Below, piece by piece: positions 432 through 63,672 of a stretch of DNA of 64,000 nt. A program made the translations under genes and the position numbers. The DNA is from Bacteroidales bacterium (GTDB lineage: Bacteria > Bacteroidota > Bacteroidia > Bacteroidales > UBA3663): assembly GCA_045598885.1 (NCBI GenBank), contig JAZRVB010000162.1, forward strand, positions 2,809-66,808. The letters run 5' to 3'. Position 1 is the first letter of the stretch. Every line of letters starts with the position of its first letter. The notes under the pieces are model-generated. The model saw nothing but the letters and a program-made list of their open reading frames with translations. It ran no database searches and had not been told where the DNA came from.

Positions 432-646
432 ACCTACGCCCAGACAGACCCTCCCCCGGCCCCTCCCTCGCTAAAGCTCGTCTTCTCGCTGAAGGCTTAT
501 CAAGCCTTCTTATCGCTGCGAGGACCACAAGGGAGGGGAGTGGTTAGAACTAGTATATAATTAGCAAATAGGATAACAAAAACCTCAACCCTCCGAGGTA
601 ATTACTCCCCTCCCTTGTGGAGGGGTAGGGGGAGGGTCTTCTTAAT

Positions 647-6566: not shown

Positions 6567-9500
6567 GTTTCGATTTTGGTAAATGGTCGTTCGACAACAG
6601 TAAGCTCGTCAGCTTCCTGATTGCCGTCCTGATCGTTGGCGGCATGGTGAGCTACTATGTGCTGCCAAAGCTTGAGGATCCTGAGCTGAAGGTGCGACAG
6701 GCGCTGGTCGTAGGCGTCTATCCGGGTGCATCGGCTCATGAGGTGGAACTGCAGCTGGTCGATCCGTTGGAGAAATCTATCCGACAGACGCCGGACGTGA
6801 AGTCGGTAGAGTCGGCCTGCTATGCCGATATGTGTCTGATGACCGTGGAACTGATCAGTACGGTGCCTAACGAGGAACTGGAGCAGCACTGGGACATCAT
6901 GCGTCGCAAGGTGCAGGGTGCCGCGTTGCCAGAGGGTGTGGCTTCGGTGCAGGTCAAGGATGACTTCGGCGATGTATTCGGTATGTTCTATGCCATCACA
7001 GGCGATGGCATGAGTGATAAGGAACTCTCTGACTATGCGGAGTATGTGAAGCGCGAACTTGCGCTGATTGAAGGTGTGAAGCGTATCGATATCTACGGCA
7101 AGCGCTCGGAATGTATCAATGTGACGCTGCGTCAGGACCGTCTGGCCCATCTGGGAGTGTCGCCTATCGAGGTGATACAGACGCTCAACGGACAGAGTGA
7201 GTCGGTCTATGGCGGATACTTCGAGAATGGCAACAACCGCATCCGTGTGTCGGTAGGTAACCGCTCGAATGCTGTAGAGGATATAGAGAACCTCATCGTG
7301 CAAGGCCATGAGAATGACCAGCTGCGACTGAAGGATCTGGCATACGTGCATAATGAATATGACGAGCCGGTTCGCAACTCGATGACCTTCGACGGTGACC
7401 GTTCATTGGGTATCAGCATCTCGGCTTCGTCAGGTGTCGATGTCACCAAATTAGGTGCAGCGGTCGATGAGCGTATGGAGGAGCTGAAGATGGCCATGCC
7501 GGTGGGAGTGGAGTTCCATAAGGTCTTCTACCAGCCGGAGCGTGTCAGCAATGCACTCAATACGTTTATCATCAACCTCATTGAGTCTATTGCCCTGGTG
7601 GTGCTGGTGCTCATTTTCTTCATGGGATGGCGCTCAGGTCTGATCATCGGTTATGCATTGCTCGTCATCGTGCTGGGTTCGATCCTGATCCTCAATGGTC
7701 TGGACGGTACGTTGCAGCGCGTGTCGCTGGCTTCGTTCATCCTGGCCATGGGTATGCTGGTCGATAACGCCATCGTGATCGTCGACGGCATCCTGGTCGA
7801 CAAGAAAAAGGGATTGCCTAAGCTCGAGGCGCTGACCAGCATCGGACAGAAGACAGCCATGCCACTGCTGGGAGCTACATTGATCGCTATCCTGGCCTTC
7901 CTGCCTATCTTCATGAGTCCTGATACGACGGGTCTGTATGTGCGCGATCTCTTCATTGTCATGGCCGTGTCGCTGCTCCTGTCGTGGATCCTGGCATTGA
8001 CACACGTGCCGCTGATGGCATCGCGCCTGCTCTATAGCAAGCGTGCAGAGGCGGCTGAGAAACGTGCAGCAGAAAAAGCAGCGGCCAAGGGCATAGAGTC
8101 ATCAGAAGAGGAATATAACAGCGCTACCTATCAGCGTATGCGCCACATGCTGGATGGCCTGCTCAACCACCGCTGGACATGCGTAGTGACTGCTTTGGTA
8201 CTCTTTGCCATCAGCGCGTTCTGCTATCAGTTCCTGCCACAGGCGTTCTTCCCTGATATGGAGTACGACCAGCTCTACATGGAGTATAAGTTGCCTGAGG
8301 GACGCAACTACAAGCAGGTAGAGGCTGATCTCATCGAGATACAGCGCTATCTGAAGACGCGCTCGGAGGTCAAGCATATTGTGGCATCGACGGGTGGCAC
8401 GCCATCGCGCTACAACCTCGTCAGAAGCATCGCCTCGCCATCTTTGGCCTACGGTGAGCTGATCATCGACTTCGAGTCGCCTAAGGCGCTGGTGAAAAAT
8501 CTCAACGCCATCCAGGATACGGTCTCGCAGATGTTCCCTGACGCTTACGTCAAGTTCAAGCGCTACAACCTCATGTATAAGAAGTACCCGATCGAGGCGC
8601 AGTTTACGGGTCCTGATCCTGCCGTGCTGCACCAGCTGTCGGACAGCTGTCGTGCCATCATGGAGCGTACGGGAGCCGTGCGACTGATCACAACCGACTG
8701 GGAGCCTAAGGTGCCGATGCTCGAGATTGCCTATAACCAGCCGAATGCACGCCGTCAGAACCTCTCGCGCAAGGAGGTGGGTACGTCGGTGCTGGCTGCT
8801 ACCGATGGCATCCCTGTGGGCGTTCTTTATGAAGGTATCCACCAGAAGAAGGTCTATGTGGAGTGTGTCGACAAGAACGGCGAGCCTCTGTCAATGATCG
8901 AGGATGCTTCAGTCTTCGGATTGATCCCTAACCTGGCTTCGGTGGCCAACCAAGAGATGGTGGCCAATGCCATCAGCGGCAGGATCGACCGCAGCGTACT
9001 CATCAGCCAGCTGCTCAGCACCGTGCCACTCCGACAGGTTTCGGACGGCGTAGAGATCGAGTGGGAGGATCCTGTGGTGCTCCGTTACAACGGCCAGCGA
9101 CAGCAGCGTGTACAGGCAACGGCTGCCATCGGCATGGGTACCGAACAGGCGCGTCAGATTGTCGAGAAAGCGCTGCTTGAGGAACTGCAGCTGCCGGCTG
9201 GCTATAAGCTCGACTGGATCGGTGAGCGTGCAGCGTCGAAGGCGTCGATGAAGTATCTCTTCAACAACTATCCGTTGGCCATCATCCTGATGATCGCTAT
9301 CCTGATCATGCTCTTCAAGGACTATAAGGTGCCGACGATGATCTTCTGCTGCATACCGCTCATCCTGGTAGGTGTGATCCCTGCCGTGCTGGTGTCTGGC
9401 AAGGACTTCGGCTTCGTGGCCATCGTAGGTGTCTTAGGACTTGTGGGTATGATGATCAAGAACGGTATCGTGCTGATGGATGAGATCAACCTGCAGCTGA

Positions 9501-9724: not shown

Positions 9725-9727
9725 AAT

Positions 9728-9860
9728 GAAGTTATAAGGGAGTTATAAGGACGATACTTTTGTCAAAACTTTTCTTTGATAACTTCTTTCGAAACAGGAA
9801 CTATTGTCCTTATGACTTCCCTATAACTTCATAACTTCCTTATAACTTCCCTATAACTTC
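9728..9860. repeat. long imperfect inverted repeat built from ATAACTTCC-type words between the RND pump and TolC genes
   Basis: GAAGTTATAAGGGAGTTATAAGGAC (9728-9752) faces GTCCTTATGACTTCCCTATAACTTC... (9806-9860). The right arm contains extra stuttered ATAACTTCC copies. Confidence 0.8.
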
Positions 9861-15995: not shown

Positions 15996-16200
15996 AATGG
16001 ACATCCTGCCCTCACGACGTCCGTTCTTGTTTGCAGGAATGGACATCCTGACCCCACGGCGTCCGTTCTTGTTTGCAGGAATGGACATCCTGACCCCACG
16101 GCGTCCGTTCTTGTTTGCGGGAATGGACATCCTGCCCTCACGACGTCCATTCTTGTTTGCAGGATCGGACAACCTAAAACCGTGGCGTCACATTTTGCAG
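15996..16200. repeat. tandem array A1: 4.9 copies of a 42-bp unit (AATGGAC, 16 nt, GTCCRTT, 12 nt)
   Basis: Units start at 15996, 16038, 16080 and 16122. A decayed fifth unit runs to about 16200. Confidence 0.95.
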
Positions 16201-23039: not shown

Positions 23040-23285
23040 GTTTCTTTGTTAACGTCAATAGAAGTGTCCCGTCCTGTCGATCGCAGGAGTCATGAGTGGG
23101 CGCTCTTTGCAGCAGGTCTTCTGGCTCGTCCTGGCTCGGTGTACTGTCTTCCCGCCTGTTAACATGGGCAGTGACATTCAAGGTACGTCGGCAACTAAGT
23201 AGGACACACAGCAGCGGGACTGTTCCGGATTCGCACCGGATTCCCTTTTGATCCGCACTTGGTCAGGGTGCAGAACTGCAAAGCG
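23040..23285 (-). promoter_or_regulatory. cobalamin (B12) riboswitch
   Basis: The minus strand reads AAAGGGAATCCGGTGCGAATCCGGAACAGTCCCGCTGCTGT (23207-23247) and a B12 box GAGCCAGAAGACCTGCTGCA (about 23108-23127). It lies between a TATCTTTG promoter and the receptor ATG. Confidence 0.9.
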
Positions 23286-23313
23286 AAGTGAAAAATAAGT
23301 TTTTTCAGTGGTG

Positions 23314-24902: not shown

Positions 24903-26612
24903 ATGATCAAATCTATCCGAACCCGCGTTTTGCCTCAGATATGGGCCGATGCGGAACGACTCGAAGAGCAACTGTGCAAGGAGAATGCCATCAGCCGAAA
25001 AGCGCTGAAAGGTATCCGAATGAAACACACCAGCATCGACGCGCGTCAACGTCAAGTGATGGTGCAGCTCGACGTGGATCTATATATTAATGAGCAGCCA
25101 CCTGTTCTTCAGTTTCAGCCAAAGCTCTATAAGGAACTGCCAGCCGATGCACCACAGGCAATCATCGTAGGTGCAGGTCCTGGTGGATTGTTTGCCGCTC
25201 TTCGCCTCATAGAGTTAGGAGTGAAGCCTATCGTTCTGGAGCGTGGCCGTAACGTCACCGATCGTCGTCGTGATGTAGCCATGATCACCCGTGAACAGAA
25301 AGTCGATCCTGAGTCAAATTTCTGCTTCGGAGAGGGTGGCGCAGGTGCATTCTCCGATGGTAAACTCTTCACGCGCAGCAAGAAGCGTGGCAATGTGCAA
25401 GGAGTCCTCGAAGGTCTCTGCCAGTTCGGTGCAGACACGGGAATCCTTGACGCTTCGCATCCGCATATCGGTACCGACCGCCTGCCTGCCATCATTGCCA
25501 ATATCCGTGAGAAGATCATGGAGTGTGGCGGAGAGATCCATTTCGAGACAGCGGTGGAGGAGCTCATCCTCAAAGGAGATTCTCACTCCTCACTTCCAAT
25601 TCCTCACTCCTCACTCCTCACTCCTCACTCTGTTGTGGGTGTCCGTACCCGCAACGGTCACGAGTTCCTCGGTCCCGTCATCTTAGCCACAGGTCACTCA
25701 GCACGCGACATCTATCGCATGCTGCATCGTCAGCATATTCTCATTGAGGCGAAAGGTCTGGCCATTGGTTGCCGTCTGGAGCATCCACAGTCGCTTATCG
25801 ATCAGATACAGTATCATAGTAAAGAGGGTAGAGGTAAGTACCTGCCAGCCGCAGAATATAGCTTCGTAACGCAAGCTACAGGCAATCTGAATCAGAAAGG
25901 TGCCACCGCAGGTGTGCAGCGTGGCGTCTATTCGTTCTGTATGTGTCCTGGTGGCGTCATCATCCCTTCGGCCACAGGTCCTGAGCAGGTAGTAGTCAAT
26001 GGTATGAGTGCCAGTGCGCGTGGCAGTAAATGGGCCAATGCTGCGATGGTTACGGAGATACGTACAGAAGACCTGCAGGAGCTCGCTACACAGTTGCCTT
26101 TGGCTGAGACTCCTACAGGTCGTATGTTCGAAGGCGAGGAGCTGATGTCTTCACCTCTGGCCATGATGGCCGTACAGGAAGCCATCGAGCAACAGTGTTG
26201 GATGAATGGTAACCGCACCCAGGCGGCTCCTGCTCAGCGTATGACCGACTTTGTGCGAGGTCGTCTCTCTGCTGATCTGCCAGCGTCGAGCTATACGCCT
26301 GGTGTCATTGCCAGTCCTATTCATTTCTGGATGCCACGCTTCATCTCTGCTCGTATGCAGCAGGCGCTCCAGTTCTTTGGACAGCGTGCGCGTGGTTTCC
26401 TGACCGAGGAGGCGTTGCTCGTCGGCGCGGAGACGCGTACCTCTTCGCCTGTCCGAATCCCACGTGACCGAGAGACTTTCTGCCATCCGGTCGTGCAGGG
26501 GCTCTATCCTTGTGGCGAAGGCGCTGGTTTTGCCGGTGGCATCGTCAGTGCAGCGATGGATGGTCAGCGATGTGCTGAAGCGTTGGCTGGTAGTTGCTTC
26601 GGCCGAGTATAG
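24903..26612 (+). CDS. NAD(P)/FAD-dependent oxidoreductase (COG2509-like)
   Basis: GAGPGGLFAALRL dinucleotide-binding motif, ATGHSARD, and the C-terminal GEGAGFAGGI. Carries an in-frame heptamer-repeat insert at 25581-25630. Confidence 0.8.
   Translation: MIKSIRTRVLPQIWADAERLEEQLCKENAISRKALKGIRMKHTSIDARQRQVMVQLDVDLYINEQPPVLQFQPKLYKELPADAPQAIIVGAGPGGLFAALRLIELGVKPIVLERGRNVTDRRRDVAMITREQKVDPESNFCFGEGGAGAFSDGKLFTRSKKRGNVQGVLEGLCQFGADTGILDASHPHIGTDRLPAIIANIREKIMECGGEIHFETAVEELILKGDSHSSLPIPHSSLLTPHSVVGVRTRNGHEFLGPVILATGHSARDIYRMLHRQHILIEAKGLAIGCRLEHPQSLIDQIQYHSKEGRGKYLPAAEYSFVTQATGNLNQKGATAGVQRGVYSFCMCPGGVIIPSATGPEQVVVNGMSASARGSKWANAAMVTEIRTEDLQELATQLPLAETPTGRMFEGEELMSSPLAMMAVQEAIEQQCWMNGNRTQAAPAQRMTDFVRGRLSADLPASSYTPGVIASPIHFWMPRFISARMQQALQFFGQRARGFLTEEALLVGAETRTSSPVRIPRDRETFCHPVVQGLYPCGEGAGFAGGIVSAAMDGQRCAEALAGSCFGRV
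25581..25630 (+). repeat. CTCACTC heptamer tract inside a CDS
   Basis: TCTCACTCCTCACTTCCAATTCCTCACTCCTCACTCCTCACTCCTCACTC, translated as SHSSLPIPHSSLLTPHS. Confidence 0.95.
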
Positions 26613-35070: not shown

Positions 35071-35119
35071 GACAGCTGACAATAAACTATAACTGTTAAC
35101 TATTAACTGTTAACTTTTC

Positions 35120-35794: not shown

Positions 35795-37243
35795 ATGTAT
35801 CTTCCACAAGACCCTGACATGCTCTTCAGCATGATCAATATGAAACTACGCGATCAGTATTCCTCGCTCGAAGACCTTTGCGACGAAGAGGACATTGATC
35901 CTGCCATGTTGCTGGTAAAACTTAACGAAGCCGGATATGAGTACGACGAGCAGAACAACTGCTTCCAGTACGCCGAGGTCGTTAAGAAGCCTACCGTCTC
36001 AGAGTTGCTCGATGAGGCTCGTAAGGCCAGCTACTCGTTACTCGACATGACCGAGGAGAAGGTTAATGAGGTGCTTCTGGCTCTCGCCGATGCATTGGAG
36101 GAGCGACAGAAGAACATCATCCAGTCCAATCTGGAAGATCTAAGCCGCATGGATCCTGCCGACTCTCGCTACGACCGCCTCATGCTCAACGAGGAGCGTA
36201 TCAAGGGTATTGCTAATGATACGCGCAACGTCGCCGCCTTGCCATCTCCACTCAATCGCGTCCTTAGCGAGAGCGTCCGTCCTAACGATATGGCCATCCG
36301 TAAGGTCTCCGTCCCATTCGGTGTCATCGGCGTCATCTACGAGGCGCGTCCTAACGTTACCATCGACGTCTTCTCGCTTTGCTTCAAAGCTGGTAGTGCC
36401 GTGATTCTCAAGGGAGGCAAGGAAGCTGCAGACACCAACGCTTGTGAGGTCTCTATCATCCACCGTGTTCTGTCCGATGCAGGCCTGCCAGAGGCGCTCT
36501 GTACGCTTCTCCCGAACGATCGAGAGGCTACCGCCGAGATGTTGTCGGCCGTAGGTAAGGTCGATCTCGTCATCCCTCGTGGCAGCCGTCGCCTCATTGA
36601 TTTCGTCCGTGAGACCGCTCGTGTGCCAGTCATCGAGACAGGCGCAGGTGTCTGCCACACATACGTTGATGAGAAGGCTGACTTGGCCAAAGCCTCCGCC
36701 ATCGTCCATAACGGCAAATGCCGTCGTGTCTCGGTCTGCAACGCGCTCGACTGTCTCGTTCTCCACAGCAGCCATTTAGCTGCTCTTCCAACACTTTGTG
36801 AGCCATTGGCTACAAACACTACACCTGTAGAGATCTTCGCTGACAAGCGTTCTTATGCAGCATTAGAGGGTAAGTATCCTGCAGAGCTCCTCAACCCAGC
36901 GCAGCCGGAGCATTTTGGCATGGAGACCTTGTCTTATCGCATGGTCATCCGCACGGTCGACAGCGCTGATGAGGCCATCGACTTCATCCAGAGTCACACC
37001 AGCCATCACTCTGAGAGCATCGTCAGCGAAGATGAGGCTGTCTGCCGACGCTTCACCCGTATCATCGATGCTGCTTGTGTCTATCAGAACCTTCCGACTT
37101 CATGGACCGACGGCGCTCAGTTCGGTTTCGGTGCTGAGATCGGCATCTCTACGCAGAAGCTCCATGCACGTGGCCCGATGGCATTGCCAGAGATCACTAC
37201 TTATAAATATATAGTGGTGGGAGAGGGACAGATTAGAAAGTGA
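35795..37243 (+). CDS. proA: glutamate-5-semialdehyde dehydrogenase with an N-terminal DUF4250-like extension
   Basis: Residues about 8-60 (MLFSMINMKLRDQYSSLEDLCDEEDIDPAMLLVKLNEAGYEYDEQNNCF) look like a stand-alone DUF4250 protein. The rest is ProA (VIYEARPNVT, ILKGGKEA, CNALDCLVLH). Confidence 0.85.
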   Translation: MYLPQDPDMLFSMINMKLRDQYSSLEDLCDEEDIDPAMLLVKLNEAGYEYDEQNNCFQYAEVVKKPTVSELLDEARKASYSLLDMTEEKVNEVLLALADALEERQKNIIQSNLEDLSRMDPADSRYDRLMLNEERIKGIANDTRNVAALPSPLNRVLSESVRPNDMAIRKVSVPFGVIGVIYEARPNVTIDVFSLCFKAGSAVILKGGKEAADTNACEVSIIHRVLSDAGLPEALCTLLPNDREATAEMLSAVGKVDLVIPRGSRRLIDFVRETARVPVIETGAGVCHTYVDEKADLAKASAIVHNGKCRRVSVCNALDCLVLHSSHLAALPTLCEPLATNTTPVEIFADKRSYAALEGKYPAELLNPAQPEHFGMETLSYRMVIRTVDSADEAIDFIQSHTSHHSESIVSEDEAVCRRFTRIIDAACVYQNLPTSWTDGAQFGFGAEIGISTQKLHARGPMALPEITTYKYIVVGEGQIRK

Positions 37244-37260
37244 AAAGTTAAAAGTTAAAA

Positions 37261-37824
37261 ATGAAAAATATGAAAGTATACGCGATGTTAGCCAACGGCT
37301 TTGAGATTGCCGAGGCTACCCTTCCAATTGATATCCTCCGTCGTGCAGGCATCCAGACTATCACCGTCAGCATCACCGATGAGGATGTAGTTACTGCCAG
37401 CAATGGCATTCCAGTGATAGCCGATCAGGTACTTCCTGCTTCTGATCTCTCTGACGGCGATATGATCTTTCTGCCAGGCGGTATGCCAGGCTCAAGCAAC
37501 CTGTCGCAGTGTGCAGCACTGGCAGAGTACATCAATGAGTACAACGCCGCAGGCAAGTACCTTGCCGCTGTCTGTGCAGCTCCGATGGTCTATGGCCTTA
37601 TGGGTCTCCTCCAGGGTAAGAAGGCTACCTGCTACCCTGGCTTCGAGGAGAAGCTCCTGGGTGCCGACTTCCAGAAGAAGTCTTGTGTCCTCGATGGCAA
37701 CATCATCACTGCCTGTGGTGCAGGTGTCGGCTATCAGCTCGGTCATCAGATGGTCACCGTCCTCGCTGGCAAGGAGGTTGCAGATAGCGTCCTCCAGAAG
37801 ATGATGTATCAGGTCTACGAGTAA
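37261..37824 (+). CDS. DJ-1/PfpI family protein
   Basis: Nucleophile-elbow AAVCAAP and a length of 187 aa. Confidence 0.85.
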   Translation: MKNMKVYAMLANGFEIAEATLPIDILRRAGIQTITVSITDEDVVTASNGIPVIADQVLPASDLSDGDMIFLPGGMPGSSNLSQCAALAEYINEYNAAGKYLAAVCAAPMVYGLMGLLQGKKATCYPGFEEKLLGADFQKKSCVLDGNIITACGAGVGYQLGHQMVTVLAGKEVADSVLQKMMYQVYE

Positions 37825-44734: not shown

Positions 44735-44897
44735 AACATCCATCCTGCACGCAAGACGTCCATTCTCGTAACAAGGAATGGACGTCTTGCGTTCAAAATG
44801 TCCATTCCCGCAACAAGGAATGGACGTCCTGCGTTCAAAATGTCCATTCCTGCAATAAGGAACGGACGTCCTGAAAGCAGAACGTCCATTATTATCT
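44735..44897. repeat. tandem array A2: 3.9 copies of the 42-bp unit (AATGGAC, 16 nt, GTCCATT, 12 nt)
   Basis: Units start at 44735, 44777, 44819 and 44861. Same 7-mers and spacing as array A1. Confidence 0.95.
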
Positions 44898-46725: not shown

Positions 46726-47457
46726 TTATCGCTTCTGGGAGTCTCTAGTCCTGAGGACATTGAGACTTCCTTTCTTATTATAGCTGATGCCATCGGTGCC
46801 TTCAGCCTTGATAAGGTAGTAGTAGGCGCCGGTAGGAACGGTGCTGCCGTTGAAGCGGCCATCCCATCCGTCTTCGGGGTTGGTGGAGTGGTAGAGCTCC
46901 TGGCCCCAGCGGTTGACGATCCAGATCTCGTAGCTGACGAGCGACTTGTAGCGGACGTGGAAGACACTGTTCCTGCTGTCGGGCGAGTCGGGTGTGATGA
47001 GGTTGGGTACTTCCAGGAGCGACTCAGTGATCTGTATCTGATAAGGTACGGAGGTCTGGTAGGTAGCGGTGGCTCCCTCTCCGAGCTCTGTTGGCGTCAG
47101 ATAGCTATTGAAATCGGCCACGAAGCGTACATAGTAGGTGCCGGACTCGTCGAAGTCGTAGTCGAGCTGCGAGGTGACGCCGTCAGGTCCGAGGACGCGT
47201 AGCTGGTCGATGATCTCCTCAAACTGATTGTCTGACGCCAGTTCCCAACTGCAGTAGTCCGGCTGCTGCGACATCTCTGCCCTAAAAGTGATTTTAAGGG
47301 GGCCAGGACCAACGAACGTATGGCCGTTGACCTTCACTGAGTCCGCGCGGTTTGCGACGTATCCTGAGGGCGCGGTGTAGGCGGTGTCGGCGACGACAAA
47401 GTCGGGAGTGAGGAGTGATGAGTTAGGAGTGAGGAATAGGAGGAGGGGAAGGAGCAT
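46726..47457 (-). CDS. T9SS type B sorting domain (gliding-motility CHU_C) protein
   Basis: The C-terminal VFHVRYKSLVSYEIWIVNRWGQELYH...GWDGRFNG...GAYYYLIKA is the type B sorting domain. The N-terminal signal region is encoded by heptamer-repeat DNA. Confidence 0.75.
   Translation of the reverse strand: MLLPLLLFLTPNSSLLTPDFVVADTAYTAPSGYVANRADSVKVNGHTFVGPGPLKITFRAEMSQQPDYCSWELASDNQFEEIIDQLRVLGPDGVTSQLDYDFDESGTYYVRFVADFNSYLTPTELGEGATATYQTSVPYQIQITESLLEVPNLITPDSPDSRNSVFHVRYKSLVSYEIWIVNRWGQELYHSTNPEDGWDGRFNGSTVPTGAYYYLIKAEGTDGISYNKKGSLNVLRTRDSQKR
47404..47446 (-). repeat. degenerate CTCACTC heptamer tract (reverse complement) forming the 5' end of a CDS
   Basis: The plus strand reads GGGAGTGAGGAGTGATGAGTTAGGAGTGAGGAATAGGAGGAGG, translated on the minus strand as LLLFLTPNSSLLTP. 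Confidence 0.85.
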
Positions 47458-52580: not shown

Positions 52581-53372
52581 ATGGCAAAACCAATCATTAT
52601 AGCAGGTCCATGCGTCATTGAGTCACAGGAGTGTCTTGATACCGTCGCTCAGGAGCTGGTACGTATCAACGAGTCGCTCGGAGTGGACATCATCTTCAAG
52701 GCTTCGTTTGACAAGGCCAATCGTACGAGTATCACCTCCTATCGTGGCCCAGGCATGGAGAAAGGTCTGCAGATGCTGGCAGACATCAAGTCGAAATATG
52801 GCCTGCGCCTGCTGACCGATATCCATGAGAGCTATCAGGCTGCTCCTGTGGCTGAGGTAGTGGATGTACTGCAGATTCCTGCGTTCCTCTGCCGTCAGAC
52901 CGATCTGCTCGTTGCAGCTGCCAAGACCGGCAAGACGGTCAACATCAAGAAAGCGCAGTTCCTGAGCGGATTGGATATGCAGTATCCTGCACAGAAGGTG
53001 CGCGACACCTGGAGCCAGGAAGGGATCGTCCCTGCGTCGATCGGCGGTCGTGACGGCCTCTGGCTGACAGAACGCGGCAATTCGTTCGGCTATAACAATT
53101 TCGTCGTTGACTTCCGTAATGTGGCTGATATGAAACAGTTCACGCCGACGGTGGTGATGGACTGTACGCACGCCGTACAACGTCCTGGCGCGGCTGGAGG
53201 TAAGTCTGGCGGCAACCGTGAGTTCGTTCCAGCCATGGCGTTGGCAGCAAAGGCTTTCGGCGCTACAGGCTATTTCTTCGAGACGCATCCTGATCCAGAG
53301 AAGGCGCTGAGCGATGGCCCTAATATGCTCTATCTGAACGAGCTGGAGAAGGTGGTCAAATCATTGTTGTAA
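52581..53372 (+). CDS. kdsA: 3-deoxy-8-phosphooctulonate (Kdo-8-P) synthase
   Basis: IIAGPCVIES, KASFDKANRTS, QIPAFLCRQTDL and DCTHAVQ. Confidence 0.95.
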   Translation: MAKPIIIAGPCVIESQECLDTVAQELVRINESLGVDIIFKASFDKANRTSITSYRGPGMEKGLQMLADIKSKYGLRLLTDIHESYQAAPVAEVVDVLQIPAFLCRQTDLLVAAAKTGKTVNIKKAQFLSGLDMQYPAQKVRDTWSQEGIVPASIGGRDGLWLTERGNSFGYNNFVVDFRNVADMKQFTPTVVMDCTHAVQRPGAAGGKSGGNREFVPAMALAAKAFGATGYFFETHPDPEKALSDGPNMLYLNELEKVVKSLL

Positions 53373-53430
53373 TTCATAATTCATAATTGATTACAATAGT
53401 AATTCGTAATTAGTAATTCATATTTCATAT

Positions 53431-54404: not shown

Positions 54405-55226
54405 ATGGAAGATCTATATCAATATGGCCGTGAAGGATCAAACCTTCGTAAGGTACAGCTGAGAGCCATTGAGATGCTGGCAGAGGTCGATCGTATCTGT
54501 CGCAAGCATCATCTGCGCTACTGGATCGACTATGGCACGCTCCTCGGCTATAAGCGTCATGAGGGCAAGTTCATCCCTTGGGACGATGACCTGGACGTCG
54601 ATATGCCGAGCGAGGATTATCGTCGCTTCATCGAGATTGCGAAGACCGAGCTGAGCAAGGATTATTTCCTGCAGACGCGTGAGAGTGATCCGATGTCTGA
54701 GGTCGGAAGTGGAAACCTGCGTATCCGTGACAACCATTCGCTCTTTATCTTCAACTTCCAGGACTTCCGCAAGCCTTGCCACAAGGGCATCTTCATCGAT
54801 ATCTTTGAGTTCGTTGAGCAGCCGAAGATGGCATATAAGCCTTGGCGATATATCATGCGCCGCGTGTCGTTTGCCTATAACTTCTTCAAGTACAATCCGC
54901 AGCTCAACTTCCACAATATCGTCTGCTACTTCTGGTATCCTGTGCAGTACGTGCTTTTCAAAGGTCTTTGGCATTGCCTGCCCAAGAACAAGAAGCGACT
55001 GAGTCCGACACCTGAGACTTATGGCAATGGTAAACCCTACGACACCGACTATCTCTATCCGTTGCAGGAGGTAGAGTTTGAGGGGCTCAAGGTTCTCGCG
55101 CCAAAGGACATCCACAAGCGTCTGACGGACATCTATGGCGACTATATGAAGCTCCCCAACGAGAAGCAACGTCGCCAGCATGTGCAGTATGCCGCGGTCA
55201 ATCTTGAAGATGTCAAGTGCTTCTGA
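54405..55226 (+). CDS. LicD family (phosphocholine/phospho-alditol transferase) protein
   Basis: YWIDYGTLLGYKRH and the WDDDLDVDM motifs of the LicD nucleotidyltransferase fold. Confidence 0.8.
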   Translation: MEDLYQYGREGSNLRKVQLRAIEMLAEVDRICRKHHLRYWIDYGTLLGYKRHEGKFIPWDDDLDVDMPSEDYRRFIEIAKTELSKDYFLQTRESDPMSEVGSGNLRIRDNHSLFIFNFQDFRKPCHKGIFIDIFEFVEQPKMAYKPWRYIMRRVSFAYNFFKYNPQLNFHNIVCYFWYPVQYVLFKGLWHCLPKNKKRLSPTPETYGNGKPYDTDYLYPLQEVEFEGLKVLAPKDIHKRLTDIYGDYMKLPNEKQRRQHVQYAAVNLEDVKCF

Positions 55227-55288
55227 GGCATAGTAGCTCTTCTTTAGCCAATAACTTTTTAGCTCTTTCACTTTTTAACTTATTCATC

Positions 55289-56467
55289 GTGCGAGCGTTA
55301 ATCATAGGTCCCAAGTTCCATTACTTCAACCTGAGCGTTGAACGGGCTTTCCGTGCCCTTGGCTATGAGACGCTCATTCTGGCCTATGACAATCCGGTGC
55401 ATCCCTATACGCTCGATAATAAGATCCGTTATAAGTTTGCCGGCGATCAACTGGCCTTGAAGAAAGAGTCAAGAGCCCTGTTTCATCTGGAGGCCGAACT
55501 AGCCTTCGAAGAGTTCTTGCCCGATGTCGTCTTCGTCATGAATGGCGATATGCTGCTGTCCGATACGATCCTGCATTGGCGCGGACAACTTGAAGATGAT
55601 CCGGCTCCCGTGGAGAAACCTGCGAAGGTGGCCTTGTGGTTCTTCGATAGCATGACGCATATTCCTTTGTGCGAAGAGTGCATATCTGTCGTCGATGCCG
55701 TTTTCTGCTACGAACAGACAGATATTCCGATCATCAAGGAGAGATTTGGAGTCGATGCGCATTTCTTGCCTCAGGCGGTAGATACGGAGATCTACTATCC
55801 TATATCTTCTACCGAAGGAAAACTCCTCACTCCTCACTCTATCGAGCCCTCGGCTGAAGCCTCGTCTTCTCGCCAAGAGCATAAAAATGCTCTTTCTTCG
55901 GCTGCGAGGACCTCACTCCTCACTAAAAAATACGACATCGTCTTTGCCGGCGACATCTTCCATAGCCAGAAGCGCCGCCAGGTCATTCAAGCCGTCGTGG
56001 CTCATTATCCAAGCCTTCGAATAAAAGTCTGGGGCGAATACAAACCCTGGTATAAGAATCCATGGAAGTGGCTGACACGTGAGCGCAAGGATATCTATAT
56101 GAACCGCAACGCCAGCGGCAAGCAGCTCAATGAGGACTATAATCAGGCGCGTATCGTACTCAATATCCATCACGAGCAGCAGAAGGATGGCGCCAATCCC
56201 AAGGTTTACGAGATCGCTGCGACGTGCGCTTATCAGATCTGCGATGCCAACCCCTATATTGAGCAGCTTTTCCCAGACGGAGAGATCGGTCTCTACACCG
56301 TCGATCTGCAAGCAGGGGAGGAGCATCGTTACGACTCGCTCTTCGCATGCATCGACTACGCTCTGCAGCACGATATGACCGCTCAGGCAAAAGCGGCTTA
56401 TGAGAAGATTGTGACAAAACATACATTTATCCAACGCATCCAGCAATGTCTCGACACACTCGCATAA
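55289..56467 (+). CDS. CgeB/DUF3880-like glycosyltransferase family protein
   Basis: ALIIGPKFHYF..., YDIVFAGD and NPKVYEIAATCAYQICD resemble CgeB-type GT-B proteins. Probable GTG start at 55289. Contains a ~105-nt in-frame repeat insertion at 55821-55927. Confidence 0.65.
   Translation: MRALIIGPKFHYFNLSVERAFRALGYETLILAYDNPVHPYTLDNKIRYKFAGDQLALKKESRALFHLEAELAFEEFLPDVVFVMNGDMLLSDTILHWRGQLEDDPAPVEKPAKVALWFFDSMTHIPLCEECISVVDAVFCYEQTDIPIIKERFGVDAHFLPQAVDTEIYYPISSTEGKLLTPHSIEPSAEASSSRQEHKNALSSAARTSLLTKKYDIVFAGDIFHSQKRRQVIQAVVAHYPSLRIKVWGEYKPWYKNPWKWLTRERKDIYMNRNASGKQLNEDYNQARIVLNIHHEQQKDGANPKVYEIAATCAYQICDANPYIEQLFPDGEIGLYTVDLQAGEEHRYDSLFACIDYALQHDMTAQAKAAYEKIVTKHTFIQRIQQCLDTLA
55821..55927 (+). 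repeat. composite in-frame insertion: heptamer flanks plus a 64-bp palindromic core
   Basis: CTCCTCACTCCTCACTC (55824-55840), a core at 55847-55910 homologous to 467-524, then CCTCACTCCTCACT (55911-55924). Confidence 0.85.
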
Positions 56468-57262: not shown

Positions 57263-58123
57263 ATGAAAGTAAGTGTCATCATCCCTGTCTATAACGCTGC
57301 TCCTTACATCGCAGAGACCCTGCGTAGTGTGCAGCACCAGACCATGAGCGACTTTGAGGTGATCCTCGTCGACGATCATGGTCAGGATGACAGCATGTCT
57401 GTGGCTCAGACAGTCGTAGGCGATGATCCTCGCTTCCGTTTTATTGAGACACCAGAGAATGCGGGCCCTGGAGTGGCTCGAAACTTCGGTATCAAGGCTG
57501 CAAAGGGAGAGTATATCGCTTTCCTCGACAGCGATGATCTTTGGGAAGAGAAGTTTCTGGAGAATCTTTTCTCGGCGGCTGAGAATACTCCTCACTCCTC
57601 ACTCCTCACTCCTCACTCTTTCGATTTGACTTATTGCCAGCTCAAATATCGTGGAGGCGGTAAGGATGGCCAGGTGCATCGTAATCCTGTCATGCAGAAT
57701 GGTGTCATTGCTCCTGCGGCTCGAAAGCATTTCTTGCAGCACTTCGTTACCTTCTCGGTATGTTTTCTCTACCGACGTGATTTCCTGCTCAGCAACGAGC
57801 TGTTCTTTCCGGCTAAGCGTAACAGCGAGGATACCAACTTCCTGACGCGCTGTCTCCTGCTGGCCGATACCATTGCCTGCGTCGACGAGCCTTTATATAT
57901 ATATAATGTGCGAGAAGAGTCGCTCACCACGGGTCACAATCCGCAGCGTTATAAGGAGCGGCTGCAGAGCCTCAATGCGCTGATGCGAGACTTTAAGGCA
58001 ATGAAACAGGATTCGCGCTATAAAGAAAAGCGTCTAAGCCAGTATAATCTCGTCATGGGATGGATCTGGCTCAAGAAGGGATTGGCTCAAGCTATCAAGG
58101 AAATTGCGCTAGCGCGGTGCTGA
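57263..58123 (+). CDS. glycosyltransferase family 2 protein
   Basis: VSVIIPVYNAAPYI, VDDHGQD and the FLDSDD (DxD) motif. Carries the heptamer tract at 57588-57618. Confidence 0.9.
   Translation: MKVSVIIPVYNAAPYIAETLRSVQHQTMSDFEVILVDDHGQDDSMSVAQTVVGDDPRFRFIETPENAGPGVARNFGIKAAKGEYIAFLDSDDLWEEKFLENLFSAAENTPHSSLLTPHSFDLTYCQLKYRGGGKDGQVHRNPVMQNGVIAPAARKHFLQHFVTFSVCFLYRRDFLLSNELFFPAKRNSEDTNFLTRCLLLADTIACVDEPLYIYNVREESLTTGHNPQRYKERLQSLNALMRDFKAMKQDSRYKEKRLSQYNLVMGWIWLKKGLAQAIKEIALARC
57588..57618 (+). repeat. (CTCACTC) x about 4.4 perfect heptamer tract inside the GT2 CDS
   Basis: CTCCTCACTCCTCACTCCTCACTCCTCACTC, translated as TPHSSLLTPHS. Confidence 0.95.
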
Positions 58124-58163: not shown

Positions 58164-60668
58164 GTGAATTACATCAAGAAACTCTGGCCCTATCTTGTGG
58201 CCCTCATCGTCTTCACTGCGGTGGCATGTATCTACATGTCGCCAGTCCTCGATGGCAAGGTTATCGCTACCTCTGACGGTATTCAGGGACGTGCAGCCGT
58301 GCAGGAGGCGGTGTCTTATTATCAGGAGACTGGCAATCGTACGTGGTGGACAGGCTCCATGTTCTCAGGCATGCCAAACTACCAGATCGGTGGTGGCCGA
58401 TTCACAGCGCAGAACTGGATGCAGCCGATCCGCGAATTGCTCCTCTGGGGACACAGCAATGTCATTGCCATTGTCCTGCTTTATTGCTTAGGCTTCTTCG
58501 CACTGCTTCGCAGCATGAAGGTAGATAAGTGGCTGAGCATCGTCGGCGCGTTGGCCATCGCGTTCTCATCTTATTTCTTTATCATCATCGGTGCCAATCA
58601 CCACAGCAAGACTTCTACGCTTGCCTTGATGGCTGCGGTGATAGCCGGCTTCTATCTGATCTTCCATGGTCATCGTAAGACCGGTATCTGCATGACGATG
58701 ATCTGCTCGGCTGTCGGTTTCTTCCCGCATCCGCAGATGTCGTACTATATGTGTTTTATTATCGGATTCTTCTGGTTGGCAGAATTGTGGGATGCAATTA
58801 AGGATAAGGCCTGGAAAGCCTTTGGTATTAGTACTTTGTTCTTCGTCGCCGCCTTCGGCATCGGTCTTGGCACCGGCACAGGCGCCACCTTCACCAACCT
58901 TGAGTACGCTCAGGAGACCATGCGTGGCGGAGGTTCAGACCTTGCCAAGGACAATGACAATGAGAATAAGACCGATGGCCTCGATCTCGATTATGCCACT
59001 GCCTGGAGCTATGGCATCGATGAGTGCTGGACGTTCCTGATTCCTGACTACATGGGAGGATCGTCGAACTATAACGTCGGTAGCGACAGCGAGCTCTGTA
59101 AGCTGATGGTGCAGCAAGGTGTGCAGCGCAAGCAGGCCGAACAGTTCTGCCAGAGCCTGCCAACCTATTGGGGCGATCAGCCATTCACAGCAGGTCCTGT
59201 CTATATGGGCGCCATCGTCTGCCTGCTCTTTGTCCTCGGTTTGCTGATTGTCAAAGGTCCATACAAGTGGGCGCTCTTAGGCGTGACCATCCTCTCCGTG
59301 ATGCTGTCATGGGGTCACAACTGGATGGGTCTGACCAAATTCTTCTTCGATGTTGTGCCGATGTATAACAAGTTCCGTGCCGTATCATCGATCCTCGTCA
59401 TTGCCGAAGTCACCATGCCATTGCTCGGCTTCCTGGCTCTCAAGCGCCTCTGTGAGGTCAAGCAGCTGGCTGTTGAGGCCGCTAATGGTTCGGTAGAGAA
59501 ATATAATGCCGATGCTTCGATCCAGCAGATGATCCGTCAGTTGACGATTGCCGCTACGGTCATAGCATGCTTGCTTATGATCGCATTCCTTACCACTTCA
59601 GGCTTCACCGGAGCAAACGATGCCAATATGTTCTCACAGTTGCCAGAGTGGCTCAGTGATGGTCTTATCATGCAGCGTGAGGCGATGTTCAAGGCCGACT
59701 GGGCTCGTACGCTCGGCTTCGTCCTCTGCGCCTTTGTCTTCCTTTTCGTCTATCTTAAGATGTACAAGATGCAGGGTACAGCGCTGGTGGCTCTCGTCAT
59801 GGGCGCTTTGATCCTGTGCGATATGTGGCCGGTCGACAAGCGTTATATGAACGATGGCATGTTCTCTAAGGGCAACAGCTTCGAGCAGGCCTTCAAGATG
59901 CAGCCATGGGAGAAGCAGATCCTCGATAACGACAAGGATCCGAACTTCCGCGTCATGAACCTTGCTGCCAGCACCTTCAATGACGCTCGCACCTCTTACC
60001 GCCTCAAGTCCATCGGTGGCTACAGCGCTGCCAAGCTGCGCCGCTACCAGGACCTCATCGACGAGCATCTCAGCAAGATGCACTGGCCTGTCATCGATAT
60101 GCTCAATGCCAAGTATATCATTTTTGCCGACAAGGAGTCTGGCCAGACGGGCGTGCAGCTCAATCCGAATGCCATGGGCAACGCTTGGTATGTCGATACG
60201 CTCATCGTGGTCGATACTCCAAATCAGGAGTGCGACGCCTTGATGCAGTATGACCTGCATACTACCGCCATCCTCGATAAGGAATTTGCTGGGCAGCTCA
60301 AGGGTTATCCTGAGTATGCACAGATCGTCAATCCTTCAGACAGCACGGCTTCGGTACAGCTCACCAAGTATACGCCAGAGTATATCGAGTATGACGCACA
60401 ATCTTCGCAGGATGGTACGATCGTCTTCAGTGAGATCTATTACCCTCATGGCTGGAAAGCCACGATCGATGGCGAGCCTGCCGAGCATTTCCGTGTCAAC
60501 TACCTGCTACGAGCTCTCAATGTCCCAGCAGGTCAGCATCACATCCGCTTCGAGTTCCGTCCTGAGTCGGTCGAGAAGGGTAATATGCTCTCCATGGCGT
60601 TTGTCATTGCGATGTATCTGATCATTGCAGGATGCGTGTTCTTGGGATTCCGCAAAAGCAACTGTTAA
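58164..60668 (+). CDS. YfhO family membrane glycosyltransferase-like protein
   Basis: 834 aa with about 13 N-terminal TM segments, a large extracytoplasmic C-terminal domain and a final TM segment. GTG start. Confidence 0.75.
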   Translation: MNYIKKLWPYLVALIVFTAVACIYMSPVLDGKVIATSDGIQGRAAVQEAVSYYQETGNRTWWTGSMFSGMPNYQIGGGRFTAQNWMQPIRELLLWGHSNVIAIVLLYCLGFFALLRSMKVDKWLSIVGALAIAFSSYFFIIIGANHHSKTSTLALMAAVIAGFYLIFHGHRKTGICMTMICSAVGFFPHPQMSYYMCFIIGFFWLAELWDAIKDKAWKAFGISTLFFVAAFGIGLGTGTGATFTNLEYAQETMRGGGSDLAKDNDNENKTDGLDLDYATAWSYGIDECWTFLIPDYMGGSSNYNVGSDSELCKLMVQQGVQRKQAEQFCQSLPTYWGDQPFTAGPVYMGAIVCLLFVLGLLIVKGPYKWALLGVTILSVMLSWGHNWMGLTKFFFDVVPMYNKFRAVSSILVIAEVTMPLLGFLALKRLCEVKQLAVEAANGSVEKYNADASIQQMIRQLTIAATVIACLLMIAFLTTSGFTGANDANMFSQLPEWLSDGLIMQREAMFKADWARTLGFVLCAFVFLFVYLKMYKMQGTALVALVMGALILCDMWPVDKRYMNDGMFSKGNSFEQAFKMQPWEKQILDNDKDPNFRVMNLAASTFNDARTSYRLKSIGGYSAAKLRRYQDLIDEHLSKMHWPVIDMLNAKYIIFADKESGQTGVQLNPNAMGNAWYVDTLIVVDTPNQECDALMQYDLHTTAILDKEFAGQLKGYPEYAQIVNPSDSTASVQLTKYTPEYIEYDAQSSQDGTIVFSEIYYPHGWKATIDGEPAEHFRVNYLLRALNVPAGQHHIRFEFRPESVEKGNMLSMAFVIAMYLIIAGCVFLGFRKSNC

Positions 60669-60694
60669 CTGTTCATTGTTAACTGTTAACTGAA

Positions 60695-61828: not shown

Positions 61829-61852
61829 TATTTGCTGAAAATAGTTCCGGAT

Positions 61853-62047
61853 GTCATACTTCGCGCGCATTATATGACAAAAACACTTCCGTGGTGTCAT
61901 ACTTCGCGCGCATTGTATGACAAAAACATTTCGGGGTGTCATACTTCGCGCGCATTGTATGACAAAAACATTTCGGGGTGTCATACTTCGCGCGCATTAT
62001 ATGACAAAAACATTTCGGGGTGTCATACTTCGCGCGCATTATATGAC
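61853..62047. repeat. tandem array A3: 4.6 copies of a 42-bp unit (GTCATAC, 12 nt, RTATGAC, 16 nt)
   Basis: GTCATAC occurs at 61853, 61896, 61938, 61980 and 62022. Same 7/12/7/16 geometry as arrays A1 and A2, with different 7-mers. Confidence 0.95.
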
Positions 62048-62085
62048 AAACATAAATTGAAATATAAATCTTAAAATATTGAATC

Positions 62086-62900: not shown

Positions 62901-63222
62901 GGGGGCTCTTTTGGAGACTCTTTCCAGAGGGGGCTCTTTCCAGAGGGGACTCCTCCCAGAGGGGGCTCCTGCTCGGAGGGAGCTCCATTTCTTTGCCTTG
63001 ATGCAAAGAAGTGGAGGAAAGAAAAATCAAGGCTACGTTCCAGGAGGTTGCTCAGATTGGTCTGACTGGCAAGGAAACAAACGCAGCCTTCGGCTTTGAA
63101 CGGTGTTTCCTTGCTGGCGTCATCCTCAATCTTCGCTTTCAACCTCCTTTCACTATGCCTTTTCAACTCCCCTCGTGTCGCTCCGCTTATGCTACGCTCC
63201 TCGTCCCCTCATTCTTGAGGGG
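62901..63222 (+). repeat. element L: G-rich 16-17-bp tandem repeats, a ~225-bp structured core, and a terminal CCCCTCA/TGAGGGG hairpin
   Basis: Alignable along its whole length to the reverse complement of 63305-63672. Confidence 0.85.
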
Positions 63223-63304
63223 GTTACTATCAGCCGAAACATACTTGAGGGGGTTACTATCAGCTGAAACATACTTGAGGGGGGGGACTATCAGCTGAAA
63301 CATA
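63214..63304. repeat. three tandem 30-bp repeats (CTTGAGGGGGTTACTATCAGCYGAAACATA) at the junction of elements L and R
   Basis: Copies start at 63214, 63244 and 63274. The third copy has one extra G. Confidence 0.9.
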
Positions 63305-63672
63305 CCCCCTCAAAGATTGAGGGGACGAGGAGCGTAGCATAAGCGGAGCGACATGAGGGGAGTTGAAAGGCCATAATGCAGCAAGGCGTGAAGCAGCGCA
63401 TGGAGGATGGCGTCAGGAGCAGGCACCGTCCAAAGCCCGTAGGGCTGCGTTTGCCTGCGAGTAGTCAGACACCGTGCGATGTAGCCTTGCGGAATGTAGG
63501 CCCGACTTTTTCTCCCTCTACTCTTTTGTGTCATGGACAAAAGAGTGGAGCCCCCTCCGGGTAGGAGTCCCCTCTGGAAAGAGTCCCCTCCGGGTAGGAG
63601 TCCCCTCTGGAAAGAGCCCCTCCGGGTAGGAGCCCCCTCTGGAAAGAGCCCCTCCGGGTAGGAGAGAGTATC
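63305..63672 (-). repeat. element R: inverted, diverged copy of element L
   Basis: The 53-nt block 63318-63370 is nearly identical to the reverse complement of 63161-63213. The rest is diverged but collinear. Confidence 0.85.

Follow-up and report, generated by a model that had tools for sequence, protein, structure and literature searches.

We describe a small palindromic DNA element that resides in frame within a CgeB-like glycosyltransferase gene of a Bacteroidales bacterium. The gene lies in a stretch of 64,000 nucleotides (here called the window) of contig JAZRVB010000162.1 (positions 2,809 to 66,808; GenBank assembly GCA_045598885.1). We consider the segment 55840-55911 of this window, with a probability of about 0.8, to be one copy of a multi-copy, non-autonomous DNA repeat of the type represented by repetitive extragenic palindromic (REP) sequences, Rickettsia palindromic elements (RPEs) and MITEs (miniature inverted-repeat transposable elements), which is, as sampled, confined to one lineage. 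The evidence for this reading includes the following: (i) the segment is missing from the orthologous genes, (ii) its two hairpins have been maintained by compensatory changes, and (iii) more than 100 homologous copies occur in related genomes.

The insertion in the glycosyltransferase gene

The host gene (55289..56467, plus strand) encodes a CgeB-like glycosyltransferase (PF13524) of 392 amino acids (aa), insert included. Its start was inferred: the called protein (P0001, 392 aa) fits a GTG codon at 55289, within an open reading frame (ORF) at 55217..56467(+) that reads ...YYPISSTEG, then KLLTPHSIEPSAEASSSRQEHKNALSSAARTSLLT, then KKYDIVFAGD. At the DNA level the insert begins with the left half of a heptamer array, (CTCCTCA)2.4, at 55823-55839(+) (CTCCTCACTCCTCACTC), which ends at the phase CTC^. 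A linker, TATCGAG (55840..55846, +), leads from the array to the 64-nt core (55847-55910); in other copies of the heptamer subfamily it has the form TTCGAG or TTCGGAG. The right half of the array, (CCTCACT)2, at 55911-55924(+) (CCTCACTCCTCACT), resumes at the phase ^CTCA. The layout, the coordinates, the ORF and the peptide are as they had been described in an earlier note on this DNA. Excision of 55840-55911 (72 nt, 24 codons) leaves a perfect (CTCCTCA)4.4 array, of the same size as the array in the orthologous gene of locus L001 (ACTCCTCATTCCTCACTCCTCACTCCTCACTC). No target-site duplication was seen at this site, where a duplication of exactly one array unit would escape notice.

A search with the P0001 protein yielded 318 homologues. 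The best 120 of these 318 all carry PF13524, and P0001 is the longest among them (most have 330-360 aa). An alignment of 21 sequences places about 35 extra residues, present in P0001 only, in a linker that joins two conserved blocks and is variable in length. At the same position the orthologues P0002, P0004, P0015 and P0019 have short inserts (e.g. IPHSTFLTPH, TPHSSLLTPHS). Loci L001, L002, L003 and L005 carry a heptamer array without the core in this linker, and L008 has neither array nor core. Orthologous genes with the array only, or with nothing, are coreless sites of the kind that the earlier note had proposed to look for.

The segment might be viewed as ordinary lineage-specific coding sequence, i.e. 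a low-complexity linker whose likeness to a second site in the window (467-524) is coincidental. The linker is indeed naturally variable in length, and P0017 has an unrelated 18-residue insert at the position of the P0001 insert. This view is practically untenable: it is refuted by the covariance-model match of the segment (E = 1.6e-15) and by more than 100 homologous copies, which are mostly non-coding. Moreover, all other orthologues lack the segment; had they shared it as ordinary coding sequence, this would, by the earlier note, have spoken against its own reading.

The main variant of the core is stop-free in four of the six frames. The 72-nt insert at 55840-55911 has no stop codon in the frame that it occupies, the only one in which the variant of the window was confirmed to be open, and the CTCCTCA array is open in the three sense frames and closed (by TGA) in the three antisense frames. 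This leads to the prediction that the gene reads through the element, as the earlier note had it, and gains a disordered loop of about 35 residues. The AlphaFold model, made with an alignment, has a confident two-subdomain fold (mean predicted local distance difference test score, pLDDT, 84.6), in which residues 175-210 (the insert) score below 50 and are without secondary structure; given such low values in an otherwise confident model, the insert is predicted to be a tolerated, disordered interdomain loop. The peptides SAEASSSRQEHK or PSAKASSSR, if detected, would mark read-through translation. An intron, an intein and translational bypass were also considered and rejected (the segment is 72-105 nt long, open in frame and without a matching RNA family).

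Structure and covariation of the core

The conserved palindromic core occupies 55847..55912(+), with a covariance-model match at 55841-55913. The conserved unit of the family is about 66-72 nt long, contains two hairpins and has the order CCCCTC, a 3-4-bp mini-hairpin (GGCT-AA-AGCC and variants), TCGTCTTCTCGC, N, an 8-bp hairpin, 5-7 nt and GCTGCGAGGACC. In the glycosyltransferase gene its parts, all on the plus strand, are the 5' mini-hairpin GGCTGAAGCC (helix 1, 55852..55861); the invariant block CTCGTCTTCTCGC (55861..55873), which holds a CGTC motif and forms the 5' strand (GTC..CTCGC) of a bulged outer stem; the central hairpin AAGAGCAT-AAAA-ATGCTCTT (helix 3, 55875..55894), a variant found almost only beside CTCACTC/CTAACTC arrays; and the invariant block GCTGCGAGGACC (55901..55912), which, with a GCT bulge, supplies the outer stem's 3' strand (GCGAG.GAC).

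The second copy of the window (459..527, plus strand) is intergenic. It lies 30 nt past the stop codon of the upstream ORF, inside a G/C-rich palindromic shell. Within it (467-524) the blocks CTCGTCTTCTCGC and GCTGCGAGGACC are identical to those of the gene copy, whereas the stem is GAAGGCTT/AAGCCTTC as against AAGAGCAT/ATGCTCTT. The exact 13-mer occurs at two sites only in the window, both of them core copies, and the covariance model recovers the same two (E = 6e-18, and the value given above for the gene copy); the next match has E = 0.28. The earlier note held that the 8-bp stem had been completely swapped while remaining complementary. Complementary it is, but only about half of the positions differ. 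Similarly, the 64-bp core that it delimited is present, but homology between the two copies runs further 5', through CCCTCG-GCTRAAGC, which corresponds to a second small covarying hairpin and extends the unit to the length given above.

Across the family, 65 distinct central segments were found. Nearly all of them fold without mismatch into hairpins of 7-9 bp, and at least 13 stem sequences are represented; every 5' arm is rich in purines, and the loop is ATC, or AAAA in the subfamily of the glycosyltransferase copy. Among 104 distinct copies, 98.6% of the cells are paired; this figure falls to 87.6% on shuffling and to 41-51% if the partners are slid, and covariation scores 0.309 versus 0.107. 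The alignment had been fitted to the model, which is somewhat favourable to these pairing figures. Compensatory changes affect 12 of the 19 pairs, including all three of the mini-hairpin and seven of the eight of the central stem, which bears out the proposal of a palindromic element with a covarying stem. The outer stem (GTC..CTCGC with GCGAG.GAC, bulges TT and GCT) is nearly invariant, and a divergent copy (L039:690-759) shows two compensatory pairs in it.

Mismatches of the G·T and A·C types are equally frequent (14:14) and thus provide no signal of a one-strand RNA. No Rfam family matched the core at the gathering threshold in a scan of the whole window, and a scan of both copies with E values up to 10 gave chance-level matches only. 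On these two grounds the constraint looks like base pairing of DNA on either strand rather than of RNA transcribed from one of them. The strong covariation of both hairpins could also be expected of a functional structured RNA (a cis-regulatory motif, terminator, mRNA stabiliser or small RNA) that is multi-copy because it is useful. Such a role would suit the excess of sense over antisense copies between co-directional genes (40 versus 17), as well as the position of shell-type copies just past stop codons and of array-type copies just upstream of start codons. However, about 30% of the copies are antisense, those within genes are found in both orientations, a U-tract is absent, and copies sit inside unrelated housekeeping genes and a phage. 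Together with the balanced mismatches and the lack of an Rfam match, this makes an RNA function highly improbable.

Distribution and genomic context of the family

Species-representative genomes were scanned with the pattern CGTCTTCTCGC-N12-40-GCTGCGAGGAC. The scan returned at least 111 stretches, of which 108 are in uncultured "Bacteroidales bacterium" metagenome-assembled genomes (MAGs) and three are chance matches in GC-rich Actinomycetota. The host MAGs come from rumen, buffalo, reindeer and other gut samples and represent at least 17 species-level genomes; RUG12191 contains at least about 48 copies and SRR873602_bin.50 at least about 27. These counts are lower bounds, because MAG contigs or stretches begin or end inside the element (L010, L056, L078, L079, L083, L098 and L111). 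Within one MAG, several contigs share identical sequences that comprise the element and its flanks. The covariance model detected 107 copies in 724 kb of fetched loci. The exact pattern had overlooked only six of these, which points to a very homogeneous family. As far as sampled, it is restricted to a lineage of uncultured gut and rumen Bacteroidales.

Two further copies were identified on a 48.6-kb contig (IMG/VR UViG_3300028454_000589), at 865-933(-) of L123 and 7467-7536(+) of L124. The contig is myovirus-like, with PHROGs matches on the L124 stretch to a terminase large subunit, a major head protein, a tail sheath and a tail (tube) protein, and one of the copies is placed directly past the stop codon of the tail-protein ORF. 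L123 also carries an internally deleted copy of the element. The additional copies foreseen in the earlier note thus number more than 110 in related MAGs, plus the two in the phage contig.

The copies occupy three contexts: shell palindromes, junctions with tandem arrays of short G-poor units, and genes. They are mostly singletons, with few tandem (L076) or distant inverted (L109) pairs, and the 5' module continues into a full core in 100 of its 104 occurrences. In shell-type copies the core is nested in G/C-rich palindromes (GACCCCCTCCC...CGAGGGGAGGGGGTC) and typically begins 13-35 nt past the stop codon of the upstream gene; shell-only palindromes without the core are also common. Both forms are combined in the window in a nested palindromic mosaic (447..640, plus strand), which consists of GACCCTCCCCC...core...CCACAAGGGAGGGGAGT, a 60-nt spacer and the shell-only palindrome ACTCCCCTCCCTTGTGGAGGGGTAGGGGGAGGGTC, and which folds as single-stranded DNA with -55.9 kcal/mol (z = -8.4). 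Array-type copies are joined to units such as CCTCACT, CCTTTTACTCC, CCTGTCACTTC and others, and the arrays often reach the next start codon.

Being small, non-autonomous and multi-copy, the element resembles prokaryotic MITEs, and might be a classical one, i.e. a deletion derivative of an insertion sequence (IS), mobilised by a DDE transposase through its terminal inverted repeats. Shell-type copies do end in imperfect inverted repeats, some 11 bp long (GACCCTCCCCC / GGGAGGGGAGT), and whole units of shell and core (about 100 nt) reappear, 87-91% identical, at sites that are not orthologous. In the MAG RUI194 (L055 3400-3900, L073) the core is part of a roughly 290-nt composite, which ends in imperfect inverted repeats of about 28 bp (ACTCAACTTTCGCAAGCTTCAGTTGAG / ...CAAGTTGAAGACTTGCGAAACTTGAAT) and has sharp boundaries in the two copies. 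The terminal-repeat motif of this composite is near only about 4-6 of the 113 copies, and we reject it as a general structure. The bare core has a terminal complementarity of only 5 bp (CCTCG/CGAGG), no target-site duplication was seen at the window site or in shell-type or unique-context copies, and a parent IS was not found near any copy. What covariation preserves is pairing, and not the terminal sequence that a protein would bind. A classical MITE is therefore a very unlikely description of the family.

Copies inside other genes

There are 22 long ORFs that span a copy, and about 10 of some 105 unique copies are convincingly intragenic (~10%). Pfam domains continue across, or flank, the insert in AroC (P0121/L118), a superfamily 1 (SF1) helicase (L062), UvrD (L040), an ArsP permease (L087) and a DUF6371 protein (L024). 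In the Rhs genes of L033 and L102, antisense copies reside in frame within the conserved motif KYKF..ELDRTFGL; L031/L106 contain a related copy that was not resolved as intragenic. The spanning ORFs of L034, L037, L047, L060, L071, L014 and L067 proved to be spurious or 5' untranslated region cases and were excluded from the count.

Bacteroidales genomes are typically about 90% coding. Given that only about 10% of the copies are intragenic, residence in genes is tolerated and not favoured, and genes are avoided. Of the two options left by the earlier note, that in-frame residence is tolerated or selected for, only the first is supported. Since other real genes carry in-frame copies (AroC, UvrD, the SF1 helicase, the ArsP permease and DUF6371), its comparison with RPEs is apt.

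The loop of AroC that follows GSEMIDTF is a hot spot. Among sister species, it contains array, core and array in L118; a four-unit heptamer array, (ACTCCAC)3(ACTCCTC), in L122; about 18 copies of the 8-mer CTCACAAC in L120; and, in L121, TTCGAGCCCCTC (the linker and the 5' end of the core, with no core), and then the 9-mer TCAAACCTT about nine times over. In more distant AroC proteins (356-357 aa) both the arrays and the core are lacking. At the AroC site, as at the glycosyltransferase site, coreless arrays are present in several species and the core in one lineage.

Heptamer arrays and the order of insertion

The window contains 13 heptamer-array matches, compared with 0.74 expected. Besides the glycosyltransferase gene, three of its ORFs carry solo arrays (i.e. 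without the core), all in the sense orientation: (i) two plus four units at 25581..25629 (plus strand; four-unit part 25602-25629), in frame in the ORF 24903..26612 and encoding ...SHSSLPIPHSSLLTPHS...; (ii) four units at 47407..47434 (minus strand), at the N-terminus of the ORF 46726..47457(-); and (iii) four units at 57590..57617 (plus strand), in frame in the neighbouring glycosyltransferase family 2 (GT2) gene 57263..58123 (TPHSSLLTPHS). Intragenic arrays are sense-oriented because the array is open in the sense frames and closed in the antisense frames. The heptamer repeats taken in the earlier note as flanks of the element are therefore present, but they are not private to it.

The GT2 array is found at the same codon in L001 and is missing from L008. 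Between the window and L001 the array is identical at 30 of 32 positions, and the flanking DNA is about 65% identical (an estimate by eye). Judged from such comparisons, the arrays behave like fast-evolving, concertedly homogenised microsatellites in permissive loops. Arrays differ between species; in phase-variable contingency loci, with which they might be compared, it is between strains that the copy number of a unit not divisible by three varies and turns the gene on or off.

In eight copies of the heptamer subfamily that have an array on both sides, the heptamer is broken by the core in one and the same phase (CTC^CTCA). The core has no fixed place in the array (0|3.9, 1.5|3.4, 2.4|2 and 3|0.9 units), and the left and right units usually sum to about 3.5-4.9. 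We lean slightly towards the view that the array was in the gene first and that the core entered it later. It is also conceivable, if rather unlikely, that the whole array-linker-core-array block is mobile and entered the gene in one step, the solo four-unit arrays being footprints of core deletion by recombination or slippage between the flanking repeats. The stem subfamily CAAGAGCAT, found at about 10 independent sites, occurs almost only with CTCACTC/CTAACTC arrays, as a block that moves whole would predict; the sum of the left and right units equals the size of a solo array; flanking direct repeats would ease precise loss of the core; and AroC of L121 retains the linker and the 5' end of the core, TTCGAGCCCCTC, without the rest. 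On the other hand, the variable position of the core looks like insertion into a pre-existing array, and solo arrays exceed core-bearing ones by 3 to 1 in the window and by 14 to 2 in related loci, over 222 kb (of the 17 arrays there, 14 are solo and 11 have exactly four units). In addition, the core also pairs with quite different partners (shells, 11-mer arrays), and coreless arrays are widespread at the glycosyltransferase and AroC sites, each of which has the core in one lineage.

Inverted arrays of an 11-mer were observed between two genes of the window, at 9727-9860, without the core: (AGTTATAAGGG)x2-GGACGATAC, a 55-nt spacer and GTCC-(CCTATAACTTC)x5. The core-bearing loci L055 and L109 show the same arrangement of reverse-complement array, GGAC, spacer, GTCC and array.

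Mobility and a possible mechanism

Mobility of the element is indicated by its lineage-specific presence at the orthologous glycosyltransferase and AroC sites, by the recurrence of the same units at unrelated sites and by the copies in the phage contig. As a non-autonomous repeat, it would be mobilised in trans. We tentatively suggest that the folded single strand might be cut and joined by a structure-specific enzyme of the HUH/Y1 type (a REP-associated tyrosine transposase, RAYT; an IS200 TnpA-like protein; or a functional analogue), with single-stranded hairpin loops, and a fixed phase (CTC^CTCA) within the arrays, as the sites of insertion. This model was prompted by the constraint on pairing, by the near-invariance of the main stem at its foot and in its bulges, CGTC included, and by insertion without duplication, at a fixed array phase and into palindrome loops. 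All of this is known behaviour of REP and IS200-type elements (PMC3733652). In L053 (6064-6150) and L076 (4627-4720), two 5' modules are truncated (CCCCTCGGCTAAAGCCTCGTCTT) and pass, immediately behind TCGTCTT, into a purine-rich array, which is followed by a full core; the break beside the CGTC motif hints at a point of recombination or cleavage. The in-frame state would be the product of selection acting as a filter, through which insertions that shift the frame, bear stops or fall in structured regions would be lost.

Several observations weigh against a mobile repeat of this kind. No transposase of any kind, and no IS200- or RAYT-like ORF, was found in 910 kb around the copies (8-kb MAG pieces; 4760 ORFs of at least 70 aa), which were searched, in a weak test, by phmmer with IS200, IS608 TnpA and E. 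coli RayT queries and by an HUH motif scan. For IS200/IS605-like elements, a lagging-strand bias is expected to show as a relation to GC skew; the orientation of the element relative to local GC skew was 55:50, over 8-kb spans dominated by the gene strand. A look-up of P0001 gave no record, and two metagenome scans, with the left flank of the glycosyltransferase insert and with the subfamily-specific core, gave 0 matches and thus no presence/absence polymorphism within a species. The boundaries of the element are ambiguous, since the 5' CCCCTC can be assigned to the element, the shell or the target. The copies were collected by a 22-nt exact pattern, which in part dictates that the two conserved blocks are invariant. 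The fixed pairing of the stem variant with an array type fits a composite unit moving whole equally well. Finally, the element is known from MAG and contig sequences alone, and translation through the insert is predicted. By eye, the flanks of all listed copies revealed no consistent target-site duplication or 5' target tetranucleotide; nor, by eye, did the type of flank map consistently onto the variable stem or the 5-nt bulge, which guide-target pairing in the style of IS608 or bridge RNAs would lead one to expect.

The lack of a transposase and of target-site duplications is also what would be seen if the copies had spread without transposition, by template switching or gene conversion via microhomology (CCTC, CCCC) and with no dedicated enzyme. 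Copies lie within shell palindromes and arrays, which offer such microhomology; the arrays evolve in concert, as the near-identity of the GT2 array within diverged flanks illustrates; and the AroC loop holds 7-, 8- and 9-nt arrays in sister species. Nevertheless, some copies in unique coding contexts (e.g. the helicase of L062, Rhs of L031/L033) have no evident left microhomology, the core nearly always moves intact (its 5' module leads into a full core in all but a few occurrences), and copies have reached a phage genome. We regard this alternative as distinctly unlikely, and favour the transposable repeat.

More speculatively, the core, arrays and shells might together constitute a still-active repeat system, moved by a non-RAYT enzyme, spread between species by phages and continually writing disordered loops into the surface linkers of housekeeping proteins (such as AroC, UvrD and glycosyltransferases) throughout the uncultured Bacteroidales lineage. 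Within such a system the arrays may be preferred landing pads, or even products of the element. We consider this extended scenario doubtful; if true, it would provide a tractable model for palindromic repeats that move without a known transposase (RPEs, CGTC-type repeats).

Relationship to known repeats

The concept of REP, RPE and MITE sequences is well known, and this Bacteroidales family is undescribed in the literature searched: no published description of it was found there, the coverage being incomplete. The earlier note knew of no such element in Bacteroidales. This holds for the family, but the concept is less new, as in-frame REP-type repeats are known in several phyla (PMC3733652).

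Like RPE-1 to RPE-8 of Rickettsia, the elements are small, multi-copy palindromic repeats, a fraction of which are in frame in housekeeping genes and add a short peptide, with no known transposase. The likeness is in behaviour only; the hosts belong to another phylum, and no relationship in sequence is expected. In contrast to RPE-1 (about 100-150 nt), the core has about 66-72 nt, with two hairpins and a bulged outer stem, is regularly combined with tandem arrays of 7-11-nt units or with G/C-rich shells, and is intragenic in only about 10% of cases.

The family also resembles REP sequences and bacterial interspersed mosaic elements (BIMEs; GTAG- and CGTC-tagged superfamilies; PMC3733652). Shared features are the position close behind the upstream stop codon, a stem-loop that is kept while the stem varies, mosaics with other motifs, nesting in target palindromes and occasional in-frame copies, including in uvrD-type repair genes. 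Di Nocera et al. (PMC3733652) reported intragenic REPs in several phyla, REPs nested in target palindromes, and CGTC-type repeats in Bacteroidetes with no dedicated transposase. For the present family, too, no dedicated transposase was found in the 910 kb searched, and a CGTC motif sits at the foot of the main stem. Its abundance (at least 17 MAGs with more than 110 copies between them, of which about 90% are extragenic, the shell type being close to the 3' ends of genes) is also REP-like. However, a REP is a single hairpin of 20-40 nt, usually arranged in inverted doublets (REPINs/BIMEs), whereas the element is 66-72 nt long, has two covarying hairpins and occurs mostly as a singleton. In CGTC-type REPs an unpaired terminal tag is followed by the stem; here GTC in TCGTCTTCTCGC is paired, its partner being GAC in the 3' block, and 8 nt (TTCTCGC-N) lie between CGTC and the covarying 8-bp stem. 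The length of the stem is shared (8-9 bp in those repeats, 8 bp here), but A-T pairs are stem-initial in the former and loop-adjacent in the latter (..ATT-ATC-AAT..). The loop has 3-4 nt as against 4-5, and GGACC plus C, T or A takes the place of the CCA tail.

As modular mosaics of a few short modules, some of them tandem, which are intergenic and break assemblies, the elements recall the Neisseria intergenic mosaic elements (NIME/dRS3) and Correia elements, and the pneumococcal BOX elements. These differ in sequence and host, and residence in frame within housekeeping genes is not typical of them; terminal inverted repeats and a TA duplication mark the Correia elements, and the BOX modules are 45-59 nt long.

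The heptamers of the short tandemly repeated repetitive (STRR) sequences of cyanobacteria form short 7-nt tandem arrays. Arrays of the heptamer TAACTGA have been found in Beggiatoaceae, Cyanobacteria and a few Bacteroidetes, including Paludibacter, often upstream of start codons and in the forward orientation, and their origin is unexplained (PMC4679880). The arrays described here are similar to both in their 7-nt tandem units, in being sporadically abundant in individual lineages and in their frequent location directly upstream of start codons. They differ in their units (CCTCACT, CCTTTTACTCC), which are G-poor and open in three sense frames, in being often intragenic, in having typically four units and in their coupling to a conserved hairpin core.

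Our results extend in-frame palindromic insertions of the Rickettsia type to free-living, host-associated Bacteroidales, in which they affect core metabolic and repair genes. Such a large and homogeneous family (more than 100 copies in at least 17 species and one phage) is well suited to the study, by population metagenomics, of how hairpin repeats move without a transposase. The elements also deserve the attention of annotators and those engaged in comparative analyses. They break MAG assemblies, lengthen proteins by 7-40 residues, create apparent lineage-specific inserts and place frameshift-prone heptamer arrays inside essential genes.

Other repeats in the window

The genome is unusually rich in 7-nt tandem repeats. 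Further heptamer arrays lie at 35085-35115 (AACTATT/AACTGTT), 37237-37267 (AAAGTGA), 53370-53429 (TAATTCA, eight units) and 60660-60692 (AACTGTT). Tandem repeats of 42 nt, in 2.8-5 copies and unrelated in sequence to the core, are located at 15996-16175, 44758-44873 and 61838-62050; at least in the last two arrays, each unit contains an internal palindrome (e.g. GTCCATTCC..GGAATGGAC).

A large inverted repeat of nested structure occupies 62913-63664. Tandem arrays of 16/32 nt (CTCTTTCCAGAGGGGG), 540-640 nt apart, serve as its arms and enclose a palindrome with 76-nt arms (63151-63378) that holds a 30-nt tandem repeat in 3.2 copies. The whole may represent a further mosaic repeat or else a segment that can invert. 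The only Rfam match in the window at the gathering threshold is a cobalamin riboswitch (RF00174, 106 bits) at 23094-23295 on the minus strand.

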